NCBI GenBank assembly: GCA_963745035.1
Contig: CAVUVW010000003.1
Span: 1-18,330, forward strand
DNA length: 18,330 nt
Reading direction: 5' to 3'
DNA from: an uncultured delta proteobacterium
Lineage (GTDB): Bacteria > Desulfobacterota > Binatia > UBA9968
In this document: in pieces, positions 11,854 through 18,308 of the stretch
How positions within the stretch are numbered: the stretch's first letter is position 1
Layout of the letters: every line of letters starts with the position of its first letter
Translations under genes and position numbers: made by a program
Notes under the pieces: model-generated
What the model saw: the letters and a program-made list of their open reading frames with translations, nothing else
What the model was told of the DNA's origin: nothing
Databases searched by the model: none

Positions 11854-12900
11854 ATGAGCGAACGCGGCCGGTTTCATAGAGCGCTGTCCTTTTTATCGCG
11901 AATCTCTGAAGTGAAGTTTGCGATCAATATATTTATCGCAGCGAGCGGTTTGCTTTTGATACCTGCGTTCGCCCACGCGCAGAAGTCCATCGTCGCCTGG
12001 TCGGCGGTGAGCGCGCTGAATTCCCCGTTCTGGGTGATGAACGACGCAGGTTTTTGGAAGCAGGAGGGCTTGGACATCCAGCTCGTCTACATCGCTAGCT
12101 CGCCGACCGTGGCGCGGGCGACGTTGGCGGGCGAGATCGTGCTTTCCGGCGCCAACAGCCAGGTGATCGTCGATGTTGGGCTCGGCGGCGGCGATCTGGT
12201 CGCCATGGGCGCGATCACCAACGTCGTGGCTTTCTATGTGATGGCCGCGCCGGAAATCAAAAGCGTAAACGATCTCAGAGGGAAGGTGGTCGGTGTCACG
12301 CGCTTCGGTGCGTCGACGGATTTCGGCATGCGCATGCTCTTGTCGAAGTACGGTCTCGAACCGGCGAAGGACGTCCCGTTCATTCAAATCGGCGGCATGC
12401 CTGAGCTGGCCGCGGCGCTGTCCAAGAAAACCGTCTTTGCCGCGCCGATGTCGCAGCCCATGGTCTATCTTGCGCAGCAGGCGGGCATGCGCATGATCGC
12501 CAATCTCGCCAAAGAAGAGATCCCCTTTATGCACATCGGCCTCACCACGTCGCGGAAGTGGATCAAAGAAAATCGCCCGCAAGCCAAAGCTTTCGTTCGG
12601 GCATATGGCCGGGCGATGCATTTCATGCACACGCGCAAGGAGGAGACGCGGGCGATTTTTGCGAAATATACTCGGATCAACGATCAGGGCATGCTCGACG
12701 GCAGCATTCAGTACGGCTACGACTTCATGGAGAAGATTCCACTCGTAAAAGCGGAGGCGTTCCAGGTTACGTTGGACCAGATCGCAAAGTCCAATCCCAA
12801 GGCCAAACAGGCAAAGCCCGAGCAGTTCTTCGACAATAGCCTGGTACAGGAGCTGATCAATGAAGGGTTTTTTGCCAAACTTTGGGGCAAGAATCCTTAG
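11854..12900 (+). CDS. ABC transporter substrate-binding protein, NMT1/THI5/SsuA-like (paralog 1)
   Basis: GGAGG RBS; signal ending AFAHAQ; PFWVMNDAGFWKQEGLD and IKSVNDLRGKVVGVTRFGASTD. The true start may be GTG 11911. Confidence 0.88.
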   Translation: MSERGRFHRALSFLSRISEVKFAINIFIAASGLLLIPAFAHAQKSIVAWSAVSALNSPFWVMNDAGFWKQEGLDIQLVYIASSPTVARATLAGEIVLSGANSQVIVDVGLGGGDLVAMGAITNVVAFYVMAAPEIKSVNDLRGKVVGVTRFGASTDFGMRMLLSKYGLEPAKDVPFIQIGGMPELAAALSKKTVFAAPMSQPMVYLAQQAGMRMIANLAKEEIPFMHIGLTTSRKWIKENRPQAKAFVRAYGRAMHFMHTRKEETRAIFAKYTRINDQGMLDGSIQYGYDFMEKIPLVKAEAFQVTLDQIAKSNPKAKQAKPEQFFDNSLVQELINEGFFAKLWGKNP

Positions 12901-12924: not shown

Positions 12925-13917
12925 ATGAAGAGAACGTTGCTTGTGTTTCATTGCCTCCTTGTCGCAATTGTTATTTTCGCGCGGCCGGCGCTAGCGCAGA
13001 AGCTTGTCATAGCGTGGACCGCGGTGAGCGCGTTCAACTCGCCGTTTTGGATCATGAGCGATGCGGGATTCTATAAAGAAGAAGGCTTGGACGTCGATAC
13101 GATGTATATCGCCAGCTCGCCCATTGCCGCCAAGGCGACGTTGGCAGGCGAGATCGTCATCAGCGCGCAGAACAGTCAAGTGATCGCGGATTCCGGCCTG
13201 CAGGGCGCGGATTTGGTTGCCATCGGCGCTGCGGTCAATATCGTTCCTTTTTATGTAATGGCTGCGCCGGAGATAAACAGTGTAAGTGACCTCAAAGGCA
13301 AAACCATCGGCGTTTCTCGTTTTGGTGCGGCGACCGATTTCGGCATGCGCATGTTTCTTGCCAAGCACGGGCTCGCAGCTCACCGGGACGTGGCCTTCAT
13401 TCAGATAGGCGGTATGCCGGAGATCGCCGCGGCGCTCTCTAAGAAGATTATCGCGGCCGCGCCGATGTCTTACCCGATGGTCTATGTAGCCGAACAGGGC
13501 GGGGCAAAGGTGTTGGCCAATCTTGCCAAAGACGAAATTCCATTTGTTCACTTGACGCTGACGACCACGAAGCGCTTTCTCAAAGACAAGCGGCCGCAGG
13601 CGAAAGCTTTCTTACGAGCCTATGGCAAGGCGATGCACTTCCTCTACAATCGCCAGGCCGAATCGTTGGCAATATTTGCCAAATACACCAAAATTAAAGA
13701 TCAAAAAATGTTGGAGGGCAGTCTCAAGTATGGCTACGAATTCATGGAAAAAGTGCCGTTCGTGAAGCGGGCGGGGTTTCAGGTCACTCTTGATGAAATC
13801 GGCCGGACAAATTCCAAGGCGAAGCAGGCGCGGCCGGAACAATTCTTCGATAACAGCATCGTCCAGGAATTGGTCGACGAGGGATTCTTTGCCAAACTGT
13901 GGGGAAAGAATCCTTAG
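12925..13917 (+). CDS. ABC transporter substrate-binding protein, NMT1/THI5/SsuA-like (paralog 2)
   Basis: Signal peptide ending PALAQ; collinear with the upstream gene, and both end EGFFAKLWGKNP. Confidence 0.9.
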   Translation: MKRTLLVFHCLLVAIVIFARPALAQKLVIAWTAVSAFNSPFWIMSDAGFYKEEGLDVDTMYIASSPIAAKATLAGEIVISAQNSQVIADSGLQGADLVAIGAAVNIVPFYVMAAPEINSVSDLKGKTIGVSRFGAATDFGMRMFLAKHGLAAHRDVAFIQIGGMPEIAAALSKKIIAAAPMSYPMVYVAEQGGAKVLANLAKDEIPFVHLTLTTTKRFLKDKRPQAKAFLRAYGKAMHFLYNRQAESLAIFAKYTKIKDQKMLEGSLKYGYEFMEKVPFVKRAGFQVTLDEIGRTNSKAKQARPEQFFDNSIVQELVDEGFFAKLWGKNP

Positions 13918-13941: not shown

Positions 13942-14131
13942 GTGACGCTGATTCTCAACAATGACGACGTGAAGCAAGTCCTCGACATGGAAATCACCAT
14001 GGCGACGCTGGATACAGCCTACCGAGAGCTGGCGCGCCAAGAGGCGGTGTGCCGTCCGCGCACGGTATCACAAGATCTATCAGTGGGGCACGATGGAAGG
14101 CGGCTCGATTTCCGGCTACTCGGCTATTCGA
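13942..14131 (+). pseudogene. Truncated ornithine cyclodeaminase / mu-crystallin family gene (N-terminal remnant)
   Basis: MTLILNNDDVKQVLDMEITMATLDTAYRELARQEAVCRPR is a typical OCD N-terminus. KIYQWGTMEGGSISGYSAIR continues in another frame from 14072. No Rossmann domain follows. Confidence 0.7.
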
Positions 14132-14147
14132 CCGCGGCCTAGGGATA

Positions 14148-14187
14148 GCCTGACCAACCCCAGCGGTTGATACGCGGTTCGTTAGGC
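14148..14187 (+). other. attC remnant (40 bp)
   Basis: GCCTGAC (R''-like) at 14148 and GTTAGGC (R') at 14181; L boxes not recognisable. Confidence 0.5.
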
Positions 14188-14246
14188 TTGTAGATTCAGA
14201 CAACAGGCGTCGTACTTACGGCACGCTCGATACCAAGGATTTGACG

Positions 14247-14654
14247 ATGCCGCTGGTTGCTGTCACCCGCTTGCGCGTCAGGTCGGTTCGCTTTGGGTTG
14301 CCATTTGGCTGGTATACCTGGCGATCATTCAGACAGGCCCAACGCGTGCCCGGCAGCCTCGGGGTCAAGTTGCGGAGAGTAGAAGGCTTCGCGTTCTGGA
14401 CAGTGACCGCGTGGCGGGACGAAGCGGCGATGAGCGCCTACCGCATCGCGCCGCCTCATCTGCACGCGATGCCCAAGCTTCTCGAGTGGTGTGACGAGGC
14501 CGCTGTGGTGCATTGGAACCAAGACTCCGCCGAGCTACCGGACTGGGAAACAGCGGAGAGGCGAATGGCCGAATCCGGCCGCCTGTCCAAAGTGAATCAT
14601 CCGTCTATCGATCAACAAGCCGGCCGACTAGACTTTACGGCCAAGAACACCTAA
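14247..14654 (+). CDS. DUF3291 / ABM-like dimeric alpha-beta barrel protein (cassette gene)
   Basis: AAGGA RBS; VAVTRLRVRS, FWTVTAWRDEAAMSAY and PHLHAMPKLLEWCDEAAVVHW; the stop TAA lies within the R''-like ACCTAAT. Confidence 0.8.
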   Translation: MPLVAVTRLRVRSVRFGLPFGWYTWRSFRQAQRVPGSLGVKLRRVEGFAFWTVTAWRDEAAMSAYRIAPPHLHAMPKLLEWCDEAAVVHWNQDSAELPDWETAERRMAESGRLSKVNHPSIDQQAGRLDFTAKNT

Positions 14655-14743
14655 TCAAACGCTGCACGTCACAGTGACATCGGCGGCTTCTAAGAGTTTT
14701 GCGTTTCACCATCCGCCGTCGCAAGTGAGCCGAGGCGTTTATT
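14649..14743 (+). other. Degenerate attC site (95 bp)
   Basis: ACCTAAT-CAAAC-GCTGCACG ... GGCGG...CCGCC ... AGTGAGC-CGAGGC-GTTTATT. L''/L' pair with one unpaired base, but both core boxes deviate from consensus. Confidence 0.7.
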
Positions 14744-14883
14744 CCCGAGTCTGTTCCGCTGTTCCTAAAACGCTACAAAGTGAAGTATGGATAAGCTGAC
14801 CAGTAATTGTCGCTCCCTACGGCGGCTCACTTAATAGTTAGTTAGACTGCATCATCAAGAATGCCTGACTGCTAGTATCGAAA

Positions 14884-15606
14884 ATGCCAAAAGACTCGTT
14901 TCCGAACCCTCCTGCGTTTCTCGCTGGAGCCCCGAAAGTCGTTCTCAATAGGCTGGACCCGGAGCGAGCTTTGCTGTTCGCCCTAGACGCCAGAAACCAA
15001 CCGGCGTCACGCGGCGGCTGCCTTATCGCGCTCGGTAGCATCGATTCCGCATTAGCCGCCGCGAGAGTTCAGCAGCGGCGGATTGCCAGCGCCAAGAGAA
15101 TGATGGAGCGCAACTCGCGGGCCGGACGAGGCCATCGCATGTTATTCCACGACGTCCACTTCTACCTGATTTGCTGGGGTAGGGTTTCTAAACTGGCACA
15201 TTTCGTCGTCAGGATCACTCAATTCCCGCAGGCCCGGCTCGTCCTCAAACGGTATCGCACGCGGCTTGATCATATGGTTGGGTTCCGGGACCACCTTGAA
15301 CACTTCGAAGAGCGCCTTCCCGGTGGCTCAAAGAACCACATTTTGAGGGTGCCTGGAGACCTTTTCAACATGAGTGGTGACTTCGCGACAATTGGAGGCG
15401 ACCGCGTAGACGTCGGAAAAGCCAGCGTCAGATTACTTGCCATGATCGTGAGCGAGTTCAAGACAGCGGTGCTGTTTGATGCCCTCACAAGCTTGGCAGC
15501 CAAGGATCCAAACTCTGCCGCGCGCTTGATCCAGGCTGCGGCGCGTGATGTCGGGCTCGCTCGCATCATGCGAGCTGTGCGGAGAGGCCTGCGACATGCC
15601 GTCTAA
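14884..15606 (+). CDS. Hypothetical cassette protein, putative HEPN-domain nuclease
   Basis: Apparently helical 240-aa protein with DVHFYLICW and FRDHLEH (R-x4-H). Preceded by GTTAGAC (14841-14847); stop TAA lies inside GTCTAAC. Confidence 0.65.
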   Translation: MPKDSFPNPPAFLAGAPKVVLNRLDPERALLFALDARNQPASRGGCLIALGSIDSALAAARVQQRRIASAKRMMERNSRAGRGHRMLFHDVHFYLICWGRVSKLAHFVVRITQFPQARLVLKRYRTRLDHMVGFRDHLEHFEERLPGGSKNHILRVPGDLFNMSGDFATIGGDRVDVGKASVRLLAMIVSEFKTAVLFDALTSLAAKDPNSAARLIQAAARDVGLARIMRAVRRGLRHAV

Positions 15607-15652
15607 CCAAGCGCTGCACCCGGCGGCCGCGGGTGAGCGCTGGTCGTTAGGC
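15601..15652 (+). other. attC site (compact, 52 bp)
   Basis: R'' GTCTAAC, spacer CAAGC, L'' GCTGCACC, L' GGTGAGC, R' GTTAGGC. AGCGCT-g-CACCCG-g-CGG pairs with CCG-CGGGTG-AGCGCT, leaving two extrahelical bases. Confidence 0.9.
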
Positions 15653-15680
15653 GCTCAAATTTTGTAGTACTGGAGGTCCC

Positions 15681-16130
15681 ATGAAAGTGTGCGTGGCGAC
15701 ATTGCTTCTGATTAGTTTGTCGTTGCTATTTTCCGAGGTTTACGCGCAGAAGACAGCTACATCACGTCGCGATTCTCCCATCGCGAAAGGTATGCCGATC
15801 AAATGCTCCGGAGCCGATTACACGTGGACGGGGATGCTACGAGAAAAGGAGAGTACTCATACACTCGAGACAAGCAAAGACGTTAACTCGACTCCGCTCG
15901 AGGTCGTCATTCTGGAAAAGGCCGACGCACTGATGGTGGACAACGAGAAGTTCAAGATCGTCCGCAGCAATCCAAACGAAACATTTGCCCTGTTCCTCGA
16001 CGACAGGAATCTGATCACCGTCGTGCTCAACTATAGGTACGGAACTTTACTCTACAGTAAGGTGTTCACCAACGTAGAGGTTGGCAAGCAGAATGCGATG
16101 AGCTTTGTCGCAGCCTGCAAGAACTATTAA
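15681..16130 (+). CDS. Hypothetical secreted protein (cassette gene)
   Basis: GGAGG RBS; signal peptide MKVCVATLLLISLSLLFSEVYAQ; two Cys in the mature part (IKCSG, AACKNY); flanked by attC sites. Confidence 0.8.
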   Translation: MKVCVATLLLISLSLLFSEVYAQKTATSRRDSPIAKGMPIKCSGADYTWTGMLREKESTHTLETSKDVNSTPLEVVILEKADALMVDNEKFKIVRSNPNETFALFLDDRNLITVVLNYRYGTLLYSKVFTNVEVGKQNAMSFVAACKNY

Positions 16131-16148
16131 CTGACGCACGCCCAGGGC

Positions 16149-16224
16149 GCCTGACACGCCGCTGCAGACCGACAAGCGGCGCGTGCTTGCGGGGCTTTTT
16201 GCGAGTTGACTCTCGTCGTTAGGC
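16149..16224 (+). other. Degenerate attC site (76 bp; L' apparently lost)
   Basis: GCCTGAC-ACGCC-GCTGCAGA-CCGAC ... GTTAGGC (16218-16224); no CTGAGC-type L' before the core. Confidence 0.7.
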
Positions 16225-16254
16225 AACATACTTGGGCCTTTCGGTGTGGCAATT

Positions 16255-16484
16255 ATGTACTCCCCTTCGCAAATCCTTATCTCAAGCGGCTTGCTTTTAA
16301 GTATTATCGGGTCAGGTATTCTCGTTTGGCACCCATCAAAGAGATTTTTCGTGTCCCGAGAATGCTCACATTAAAGACCCTAAACTCACCTATGTGGCGC
16401 GTGATATCGATTGGAAGGTTATCAAACAGTGGGAAGCATCCAAATGCCTCCCCTTGAATTTTCTTCGACAATGAAGATGCCTAA
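16255..16484 (+). pseudogene. Probable decayed cassette gene (small membrane protein fragment)
   Basis: ATG 16255 gives MYSPSQILISSGLLLSIIGSGILVWHPSKRFFVSRECSH* (stop at 16374). Protein-like sequence continues in other frames to a TAA within GCCTAAC. Confidence 0.35.
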
Positions 16485-16485
16485 C
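16479..16485 (+). other. R'' box (GCCTAAC) of the attC interrupted by the IS
   Basis: Perfect complement of the GTTAGGC at 16218 that opens this cassette; directly abuts the IS terminus. Confidence 0.8.
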
Positions 16486-16497
16486 GAGCCTGTAAGT

Positions 16498-16528
16498 AAA
16501 CCCGATTTTGAAAGCGGGTTTTTATTTC
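16498..16528 (+). terminator. Terminator-like hairpin just inside the IS end
   Basis: AAACCCG-ATTTTGAAAG-CGGGTTT followed by TTATTT; possibly bidirectional. Confidence 0.5.
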
Positions 16529-16615
16529 GTGTTCTGGTATCCCAGTCAGTGATCGTTCGTTGGCGAGCGGGACAATGCCATGGACCGACACGCGCGGTTT
16601 CTCTTCGTCCTAGCG

Positions 16616-18159
16616 CTATACTGCTCCAACCGAGGCGATCTTCTCGATATTATGCACCAAGCTGAATAATTGCCATTGCGTGTTCACTTTCTGTTTGCCG
16701 CGTAGCGTAAATCGGTTCATTCCCTTGTTCTTTAAATTCCCAAACACCGGCTCCACTATCGCGATCCGTTTGTTGTAGATGAACCGCCCGAATAGGGTGT
16801 CAAATTTGCGCCGCATCTTCTCGATCGGGCTCTCCTTGGTTTTTTCGCTGCGACCGATGAAGATCGTGATTTGCTTGGTCTCGGTGGTCTCGGCGTCTTT
16901 AAACACCGCTGTCGCAGGATACAAGGCCCACACGCCGATTGGGCTCCCCGGAACTTGACACCGAGAAATCCATGGACGTTAATATTGCTGCCGTTTCGAT
17001 ACAGCCGATTGCCCGCCGGACAACGGCAGCTTCGATCCTTCTCATCGTAAATAAAGTCCTTGGCCGTGAAGCGCTGGGAATCAATCCCGTAATAACGGCG
17101 CTTGTCTTTTCGAAATCGAATTTTATACCTATCGTAGTCCGCAAACGCAGGGTCGCGCTGACGATGGCTGCGATCAGCAATGTAGGCGTCGATGCTATTC
17201 TCTTGGGTGTACGTAACCGAGGCGCCGCTGTGATAGCCCGCATCGGCCGTCAGTTTCGCTTGCTCAAACACATCCGGGGAGATCTTTGCCGCTTGGAGCC
17301 CTTCGCGCGTGCTCTCCAGCATGGGCTGAAGTAAGTGCGCCTCTTGACCTTCGCCGTGGGCTTGGGCGTTGACTATGATCTGATGCTTCTCATCGACCAC
17401 CGCCACTCCGTTGTAGCCTTGGATCACCCCATGGCTGGTCGACATCTTGGCGCTCTGGGGATCGGTGATATTACTCTTGCGCTCATTACCACTGGGACCG
17501 ATGTTTTTTTGGTTGGATTCTGAAAACTTCTTGATCTTTTCGATCTTACGCTTGTAGGTGGCCAGTTTCTTGTCGTCCTGTTCAGCCATCGGGCTCAACT
17601 TTTCCTTGTCATCGCGGCCTCGGTGCCGAGCGACAATCTTTTTGGCCGCCGCTTCGTACTTCTGTTGCTTGTTCTTTAATTCATCGTGAGTCCCGCTCCA
17701 TTCCTTAGAGGCGTTGGAGGGTAATTTACAGCCGTCAATGGCGAAGGTCTCTTTGCCGATCAGCCCCAGAGCGTCGGCGTACATCAATACGTCACGAAAA
17801 ACTCGGGCGATTTCCTGGTGCATTGTCGCTACAAAGTCGGCGATCGTGGTGAAGTGAGGTTGGGTGTCGGCCGTCAGCGCTTTGAACTGGACATTGCGTT
17901 GGCAGGCTTCGGCTAAGCGCCGGCTGGAAATCAATCCCTTATAGTAACCAAACAAGACGATCTTGAGCAGAATCGCAGGATCGTAAGCTAAACACCCGGT
18001 GTCATCATTTTGGTAGCGGGCTTCAAAAGGACGCAGATCGATATGTTCATCGACGATTTCGTTGAGAGCGTATTCAAAACTTCCGGGTATGATTTGATCT
18101 GGAAACGATACAGGGACTAAAGTGACTTGGTTAACGTCATACGGCTTGTATCGCGCCAT
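16616..18159 (-). CDS. IS1182-family DDE transposase; one base missing near 16892
   Basis: AYDPAILLKIVLFGY..SSRRLAEAC, PHFTTIADF, AIDGCKLPSNAS, NITDPQS, QGYN, ADAGY, CPAG and C..C.LRQRC; after the frameshift, YNKRIAIVEPVFGNLK..RFTLRGKQKVNTQW..HNIEK. Confidence 0.93.
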
Positions 18160-18189
18160 CGAGTAGAAATGACCTCCGTTGAGGGGTGT

Positions 18190-18207
18190 GCGTTGCGATC
18201 GCAACGC
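18190..18207. repeat. Perfect 18-bp palindrome in the transposase 5' leader
   Basis: GCGTTGCGATCGCAACGC is its own reverse complement. Confidence 0.85.
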
Positions 18208-18254
18208 CCTTGTCGCAGGGAAATATAACCTAAAATGACTTTTTCTACACCCTC

Positions 18255-18308
18255 AACGTTGCAGTACAGGCCGATTGCTAAAAGCGCCGGCTGAGCACCC
18301 CGTTAGCC
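18255..18308 (+). other. Remainder of the IS-interrupted attC
   Basis: AAC-GTTGC-AGTACAGG-CCG...CG-GCTGAGC (L', 18290)-ACCCC-GTTAGCC (18302). Joined to GCCTAAC it gives a 58-bp site; L'' is imperfect. Confidence 0.75.

Follow-up and report, generated by a model that had tools for sequence, protein, structure and literature searches.

The window considered here is a complete contig of 18,330 bp (CAVUVW010000003.1, assembly GCA_963745035.1) belonging to the 7.4-Mb genome of an uncultured delta proteobacterium, and it ends in an array of integron gene cassettes whose last recombination site (attC) is split by an insertion sequence (IS) of the IS1182 family. This element, the site that it interrupts and the relatives of the element in other genomes and in metagenomes are the subject of our analysis. 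Throughout, G and C numbers denote genomes and contigs (the window is G000:C3, G000 being its own genome) and L numbers denote the loci of relatives. The features at the insertion are the following.

16486-18254, minus strand: decayed IS1182-family IS of 1,769 bp, with ends set by L013, L012, L014 and two solo ends
18240-18254, minus strand: transposase-upstream inverted repeat, with the minus-strand sequence GAGGGTGTAGAAAAA, matching the clade consensus GAGgCTGTAGAAAAA at 14/15 positions
16486-16500, minus strand: inverted repeat at the transposase-downstream end, read on the plus strand as GAGCCTGTAAGTAAA, matching the clade consensus at 12/15 positions by eye
16616-18204, minus strand: transposase gene, split between the frames 16756-18204 (482 aa) and 16616-16933 (105 aa), from Pfam, NF033551 and tblastn
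16479-16485, plus strand: R'' box GCCTAAC of the interrupted attC, from the sequence, which pairs with GTTAGCC once the site is restored
16483-16485, plus strand: left copy of the AAC target duplication, the last 3 bases of the R'' box
18255-18257, plus strand: right copy of the AAC target duplication, the same triplet standing on both sides in 80/85 relatives
18258-18308, plus strand: remainder of the attC (L'', variable loop, L' CTGAGC and, at 18302-18308, R' GTTAGCC), from the fold and from similarity to an attC on contig C6

The interrupted attC and its insertion sequence

On the plus strand, GCCTAAC is followed directly by GAGCCTGTAAG, which starts at 16486, and the element runs to ...CTACACCCTC at 18254; after it come AAC, then GTTGCAG... 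and finally GTTAGCC at 18302-18308. The terminal inverted repeats GAGGGTGTAGAAAAA and GAGCCTGTAAGTAAA bracket a single transposase gene. Excision of 16486-18257, that is, of the IS and one AAC, yields an imperfect hairpin of 58 nt with its R boxes paired and with folding energies of -16.9 kcal/mol for the top strand and -20.3 kcal/mol for the bottom strand, the latter showing two single-base bulges on the 3' arm. The R'' box GCCTAAC agrees with RYYYAAC at 7/7 positions, the R' box GTTAGCC agrees with GTTRRRY at 6/7, and the two pair in the restored fold. The restored site is also akin to the attC at C6:39460-39522, which lies in the intI-linked array of the same genome, 2.6 kb from intI, since 46 of 65 aligned columns are identical. 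The first-pass annotation had placed an IS1182 element at the AAC of an attC R'' box, and had claimed that removal of the IS and one AAC restores a 58-nt attC. The position is confirmed by the reading of the sequence together with the ends of relatives, and the restored site by its hairpin fold and its kinship with the C6 attC.

The ends given in that annotation were checked against relatives. The alignment with L013 spans positions 1-1769 of the window element at 86% identity, and the same terminal bases are found in L012, in L014 and in two solo ends (C6:31620-31905 and G015:C8:78566-78640).

The window transposase is of the IS1182 family. Pfam recognises DUF772 (PF05598, E 2e-13) in 16756-18204, and DDE_Tnp_1_6 (PF13751, E 5e-14) together with PF01609 in 16616-16933; the Pfam and NCBIfam matches of this transposase are to DUF772 and DDE families only, with no DEDD (IS110/IS1111-type) match. 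The NCBIfam profile NF033551, 'IS1182 family transposase', scores the two pieces at 212.4 and 60.6 bits over profile positions 1-411 and 416-487, each below the cut-off of 270 bits only because the gene is split; L013 and L027 reach 275.5 and 329.4 bits. The L013 transposase is intact and 89% identical to the window protein and, relative to its 529-aa gene, both tblastn and alignment show one base missing from a run of C near 16893. This frameshift and the downstream inverted repeat, with 12/15 positions, indicate that the window copy, the one full copy of the IS in the assembly, is decaying, and it is probably inactive.

Remnants of the IS and of its relatives were seen elsewhere. The intI-linked array has, at its far end, the transposase-upstream end of a related IS (C6:31620-31905; L002, L010, L139; 83-87% identical) standing alone; this solo end abuts the foot of a hairpin with a 7-bp stem and has the flank CGCT, not CGTT. 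In a genome of the same genus, L006 (G015:C8:78566-78640) is a 75-bp solo end of the window IS with AACGTT flanks, just downstream of an apparent tRNA-gene 3' end. A DNA search of 60 relatives returned fragments, plus a 74%-identical partial copy in G037; L005/L011 (G037:C1:3037801-3038818) and L008, from a closed genome of the same order, are partial copies that match the middle of the IS at 74-77% identity.

Shared ends, duplication and target in the relatives

Relatives were collected in a scan of genomes, one per species, which gave 41 loci, and in a scan of metagenome contigs, which gave a further 80 loci among the matches listed, of 531 confirmed stretches. In the metagenome loci, 71 left ends and 64 right ends were called, and 6/80 loci have no callable end. 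The termini of the clade are conserved, with the consensus GAGnCTGTAGAAAAA, inverted repeats of 15-18 bp and GAG...CTC tips, and elements that are 36-93% identical in protein carry these same termini. Their sizes, 1733-1875 bp, include that of the window element, the ends of which match the consensus at 14/15 and 12/15 positions.

The same triplet stands on both sides of 22 of the 24 complete elements of the genome loci, three 158-bp miniature inverted-repeat transposable elements (MITEs) included. In the metagenome loci, GTT precedes 69/71 left ends and follows 63/64 right ends. All 85 elements with both ends called comprise 74 with GTT on both sides, 6 with AAC on both sides and 5 others. 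A duplication of 4 bp (AACG) was considered, given one base common to the flank and the IS end, and was rejected because orientation-B elements show AAC followed by C, A or T. The duplication model is independently validated in Nitrosomonas europaea ATCC 25978 (L019:2362-6528), where a member of the clade splits a gene for a TonB-dependent receptor at CGTTAGTC; excision of this copy with one GTT restores a frame of 799 aa, whose halves hold the STN/Plug and the beta-barrel domains.

Beyond the triplet, the restored sites share a longer consensus. In the logo of 80 distinct sites, C is found at -1 in 68/80, A at +3 in 61/79 and G at +4 in 57/79, followed by G (43/79) and C (46/79), and a GC-rich box, with T at -11 in 55/75, lies at the distance of the attC L' box. 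The restored target C-GTT-AGGC is the integron core site GTTRRRY with an L'-like box before it; we write the core-site target motif as CGTTAGGC. The restored site of the window reads CAACGTTAGGC on the minus strand, that is, the AAC/GTT duplication within a C-GTT-AGGC context, and the minus strand of the window attC presents CTGTAC, six bases and GTTAGGC, which is the geometry of a normal target of the clade. The expectation that homologous transposases would be flanked by attC-type motifs is borne out, with the GTT/AAC duplication in core-site context in 80/85 elements.

The three MITEs (L024:3749-3906, L025:6568-6725 and L026:2526-2684), each about 158 bp long, share the GAG...CTC ends and the GTT flanks of the full IS, and one of them directly adjoins a full copy. 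Tandem elements of the clade, with GTT alone between them, were seen at about 2257-4200 of L093, where an attC model match lies just upstream, at the right end of L128, and at L024:3749-5673 (MITE-IS and IS-IS). The junction made by one insertion seems to serve as a target for the next. In L025:3910-5676 and L026:3928-5694, which are two copies of one IS in a betaproteobacterial metagenome-assembled genome, GTC replaces GTT after the right end; as GTT follows three bases on in L026, the right end of this element may be 3 bases longer.

The transposases that carry these ends and flanks are monophyletic. A quick maximum-likelihood tree was computed for 73 transposases; a branch of length 1.98 (SH-aLRT 99) separates the 68 that have these ends and flanks from ISPa7 and four other IS1182 proteins. 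The tree left out the frameshifted window protein; L013 and L014, 89% identical to it, are inside the clade. The clade is large: of 8,000 candidates scored, each a cluster of proteins at 90% identity, at least 7,991 reach E<=1e-40. Their source annotations read only 'transposase' or 'IS1182 family transposase', and it is distributed over at least eight phylum-level groups. No close relative from clinical integrons came up in a search of plasmids, where the best matches were two Pseudoalteromonas records at 44%. The attC-targeting elements named in the literature consulted (PMC3001079 and PMC11187229 among others) are those of the IS1111-attC group and introns of group IIC, with some of group IIB, and a study of plant microbiomes assigned 49% of cassette-associated transposases to the 'IS5 family' by BLAST to ISfinder, with no targeting claim in its account of them (PMC11089894). 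A link between IS1182 and attC was not found in a full-text literature search, which had ISfinder and TnCentral outside its scope.

Nature of the targeted sites

In a hairpin test, each site had to have AAC as a partner 40-150 nt upstream; with the AAC/GTT pairing imposed, folds of -0.30 kcal/mol per nt or below with at least 14 stacked pairs were accepted. At least 38 of the 80 restored sites pass this test; 18/80 have insufficient flank or no partner. The number 38 is a lower bound, given that several of the failing sites are attC-like by eye, with an R'' box that lacks AAC. Controls from the largest contig of the window genome pass in 22/400 cases for random GTT, in 6/114 for CGTTAG and in 26/400 for GTTRRRY.

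A covariance model (R2) was made from 14 uninterrupted attCs, none of them adjacent to an IS end, with a hand-written structure, and it was run on the contigs as they stand, junctions included, not on joined restored sites. In the 80 metagenome loci it gave 40 matches at E<=0.1 and 83 at E<=10. Matches that end between -3 and +4 nt of the called left end occur in 17/71 loci at E<=0.1 and in 29/71 at E<=10, all on the transposase strand, with about 0.07 coincidences expected from the density of hits. Such left-end matches are found in genome loci too (L007, L038 and two in L026), and there are extra attC matches in the flanks of 12 metagenome loci. At the right end of the IS, none of the 83 matches (E<=10, metagenome loci) ends. 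Moreover, an integron integrase above cut-off is present in 5/5 host genomes tested and in 0/14 control genomes.

Other detectors served less well. A relaxed scan by regular expression plus fold fired throughout the GC-rich coding part of the window and was dropped; the strict form of the scan misses attCs with degenerate R'' boxes and served only to choose training sites; and a covariance model R1, from the RNAalifold consensus of 19 sites, caught only 6 R-box pairs and was left unused.

Target box and orientation

Of the 38 folded sites, 27 have a surplus of unpaired bases on the 5' arm and 3, the window site included, have it on the 3' arm; the other 8 have no surplus on either arm. The rule that an excess on the 5' arm marks the top strand is noisy and derives in part from what is known of extrahelical bases; because the verified top strand of 15601-15652 scores 1 vs 2, through spacer asymmetry, the rule was used only beside a test on open reading frames (ORFs). 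In this second test, a site was assigned by a frame of at least 60 aa that ends either on the same strand at the far side of the attC or on the opposite strand at its near side. By this criterion, 15 of the 38 sites are R'-type, 7 are R''-type and 16 are unclear; among those with 400 nt or more of upstream flank, 14 are R'-type and 1 is R''-type. The two tests together indicate that the clade normally sits in the R' box, with its transposase co-oriented with the cassettes, and the arrangement in the window (R'' box, antisense) is a minority form. The crossover of cassette exchange has been located between G and TT of the core site (G/TT; PMC8876359), and the usual R' insertion sits at exactly this point, which is the cassette boundary. 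The six elements inverted relative to the motif (L018, L027, L028, L030, L033 and L036) fall in two places in the tree.

Mode of insertion and alternative explanations

An attC-specific IS1182 subgroup, which the first-pass annotation had ventured, is strongly supported by the ends, the duplication, the core-site target in 80/85 elements, the hairpin enrichment, the model matches at the junctions and the tree. With a probability of about 0.85, we consider that the window element is a decayed IS1182-family IS from a large clade, not characterised before, in which the transposase chooses the integron core site as its target. Judging from the flanks, the DDE transposase would bind the terminal repeats and capture the core site C-GTT-AGGC, presumably as a double-stranded motif, and insertion would take place at C/GTT/AGGC with a 3-nt staggered cut, the repair of which would duplicate GTT (AAC on the other strand); a stagger of 3 nt at this position would account for the duplication of the conserved GTT. 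As attC is nearly palindromic, the R' box and the complement of the R'' box both present the target motif, and the window copy hit the R'' box on the bottom strand and is antisense. The element tip GAGGC resembles the target half-site AGGC, and junctions may be re-used as targets, as the tandems in L024, L093 and L128 suggest.

Several points weigh against this reading. The evidence on transposition and on target choice is sequence comparison, and the window copy, atypical in its R'' box and antisense position and probably inactive, says little on mechanism. The 5/85 elements that lack the matching triplet are exceptions to the duplication. The supposition that homologues keep to attC holds in part only: at least 38/80 sites are attC-like, whereas 3/80 (L013, which is the closest complete relative, L019 and L106) lie inside long ORFs, so that the specificity is not absolute. 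A further 21/80 sites with adequate flanks are classed neither as attC-like nor as lying within a gene, although several of them resemble attCs with a degenerate R'' box by eye, and the attC fraction of the targets is bounded from below only. The hairpin test and the covariance model are both home-made. The tree comes from a quick search with just five long-branched outgroups. Finally, named members with a recorded target may exist in ISfinder or TnCentral.

It is possible, if on the whole unlikely, that the transposase is specific for a structure, attC folded as a hairpin or cruciform, and not for a double-stranded motif; targeting of this kind is reported for IS1272, another IS1182-family member, and IntI acts in this way too. 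IS1272/TnSha1 insert into hairpin stems, and some members of IS1182 are described as targeting palindromes (PMC4923244, PMC5678879). The polarity of insertion, 74 vs 6 elements, with the junction matches of the model all on the transposase strand, is strong, the upstream L'-like box is conserved and the C6 solo end abuts the foot of a hairpin; this L' box, however, may merely travel with R' boxes. Recognition of a fold fits less well with the three insertions in coding sequence. The TonB-receptor site of L019 has no attC-like hairpin, and L013 and L106 failed the attC test, although L013 sits in a short hairpin of 28 nt; these three copies within genes indicate that the sequence motif alone can suffice. 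In addition, the primary-sequence signal C-GTT-AG is strong, whereas IS1272, which has no sequence preference and makes no duplication, deletes the hairpin.

Recognition of the core site by the transposase, which we favour, leads on to the fate of the interrupted site. Given the GAG/CTC termini, GTT plus GAG reads GTTRRR and CTC plus AAC reads YYYAAC, and a core-site-like box thus persists at both junctions; the first three bases of the element are GAG, GAA or GAC in all 85, and the junctions fit GTTRRR/YYYAAC. The window junction CCTCAAC agrees with RYYYAAC at 6/7 positions. The hybrid site 18251-18308 folds at -16.1 kcal/mol vs -20.3 for the restored site, with the AACG/CGTT pairing and the inner fold kept and 4/7 R-box pairs lost. 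R2 does not find this hybrid and reports only 18276-18308, at 4.6 bits and E ~5. The earlier claim that the insertion regenerates the site stands at the level of the motif only. The companion claim, that the IS spares the upstream stop codon, is moot here, as the ORF 16206-16457 stops 22 nt before the attC.

From these junctions one might propose that the sites stay functional for IntI, that the cassette remains recombinable with the IS as its cargo, and that the GAG/CTC termini are conserved for that reason. We hold this to be doubtful. The agreement with GTTRRR/YYYAAC across the 85 elements speaks for it, as do the position at the exact G/TT crossover (PMC8876359), the retained fold of the window hybrid, and the left junction of R'-type insertions, which still scores as attC with R2 in 17 loci at E<=0.1. 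It is opposed by the poor score and lost pairs of the window hybrid and by the right junction, which has no hairpin of its own and where 0/83 R2 matches end; moreover, binding and cleavage by the transposase would account just as well for the conservation of the termini. An extension of the proposal, which we rate as improbable, would make the clade an integron hitch-hiker: the element would lie in sense at G/TT and restore, through its termini, a box resembling the core site, so that IntI could still use the upstream attC; the IS would move as a unit with the downstream cassette, and its transposase could be read through from the integron promoter as a cassette gene is. If true, a DDE transposon would be co-opting the integron for both dissemination and expression.

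It is far less probable that IntI placed a transposase-encoding gene cassette, with G/TT at both borders and no transposon insertion at all. Insertion at G/TT would leave GTT on both sides, and the usual co-orientation and cassette-boundary position of the clade would follow from it. However, the elements have terminal inverted repeats of 15-18 bp and no attC at the 3' end, occur in both orientations relative to the core site (6/80 inverted), have MITE derivatives, and interrupt ordinary genes with a clean 3-bp duplication; a cassette origin is thus close to refuted. Chance landing of a non-specific IS in an attC, to which the single full copy in the genome and a reported presence of IS in 23% of complete integrons (PMC4889954) could be thought to point, is refuted by the triplet and core-site context shared by 80/85 independent relatives from several phyla.

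The cassette array and its surroundings

The array interrupted by the element has the following features, those of the insertion having been listed above.

14148-18308, plus strand: gene-cassette array, from plus-strand ORFs and attC-like sites
14148-14187: attC-like site, model R2, 11.4 bits
14241-14654, plus strand: cassette ORF, from the ORF list
14884-15606, plus strand: cassette ORF, from the ORF list
15601-15652: attC-like site, model R2, 35.7 bits
15681-16130, plus strand: cassette ORF, from the ORF list
16149-16224: attC-like site, model R2, 12.2 bits
16206-16457, plus strand: cassette ORF, the one that stops 22 nt before the interrupted attC

An attC-like site follows each of the plus-strand cassette ORFs, and the interrupted attC is the final site of the array, the contig ending 22 nt beyond it. 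The very short attC-like site of 40 nt at the start of the array (14148-14187) comes directly after an ORF of 66 aa (13942-14142), for which Pfam gave no match. Just upstream of the array, 11854-12900 and 12925-13917 are tandem paralogues, about 71% identical in DNA with a spacing of 1,017 bp, which encode NMT1/THI5-like substrate-binding proteins. An Rfam scan of the full window gave 0 matches at gathering thresholds despite the clean attC, Rfam having no attC family.

The gene intI is absent from the window contig. The integron integrase of the genome is at C6:42134-43036 (TIGR02249, 445 bits vs a cut-off of 265), with attCs nearby. In the stretch 30000-44000 of C6 (L139), the integrase (42134-43036) is on the minus strand and the attCs 39460-39522 and 34637-34696 score best on the minus strand, which suggests that this integrase is transcribed toward its own array, not away from it. 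The window array may be an integrase-less cluster or a contig fragment of the main integron.

Implications and comparison with known elements

In the literature searched, the known attC-homing elements, IS1111-attC and the group IIC-attC introns, find their target by RNA-guided or RNA-based means. A third lineage, with an ordinary DDE transposase, would offer a tractable case of a protein transposase that reads a short recombination site. Elements that sit exactly where cassettes cross over may lock cassettes in place, join them together or mobilise them; they also provide repeats through which arrays can rearrange, and they probably cause metagenome assemblies to break at arrays. In practice, the conserved ends and GTT flanks are usable as markers of cassette arrays, and integron annotation tools could bridge the attC sites that elements of the clade have split.

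The window clade, with terminal inverted repeats and a 3-bp duplication and with most of its members in sense at the R' (3') end, differs from the IS1111-attC group (ISPa21, ISPst6 and ISKpn4, of the IS110/IS1111 family), for which no target duplication is known. That group is likewise described as a monophyletic subgroup of attC-targeting IS (PMC3001079, PMC11187229). Its DEDD transposase is reported to be guided by a seekRNA (PMC11187229), whereas the transposase of the window clade is of the DUF772 plus DDE type, matching NF033551. The R'' and antisense arrangement of the window copy is the one reported for IS1111-attC and for group IIC-attC introns (PMC3001079). These introns, S.ma.I2 for example, are presented as a monophyletic lineage that homes to the bottom strand of attC and lies antisense to the cassettes (PMC3001079); they consist of a ribozyme and a reverse transcriptase, whereas the window has no Rfam match and the ORF of the element encodes a DDE transposase.

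Within the IS1182 family itself, ISPa7, ISPmo1, ISPpu20 and ISBusp4 are members of the NCBIfam family of the window transposase and share 28-29% identity with it over 85-90% of its length. The ends of ISPa7 share a TGTA-AAAA motif with the clade, but ISPa7 lies outside the clade in the tree, and the one copy examined has other termini and no GTT flanks. IS1272/TnSha1 of staphylococci, of the same family, are described as targeting inverted repeats that form hairpins, with no primary-sequence preference and no duplication reported for IS1272 and with part or all of the hairpin deleted (PMC4923244, PMC5678879). The window clade, in contrast, has a strong sequence consensus, makes a 3-bp duplication, and leaves the hairpin intact and recoverable.

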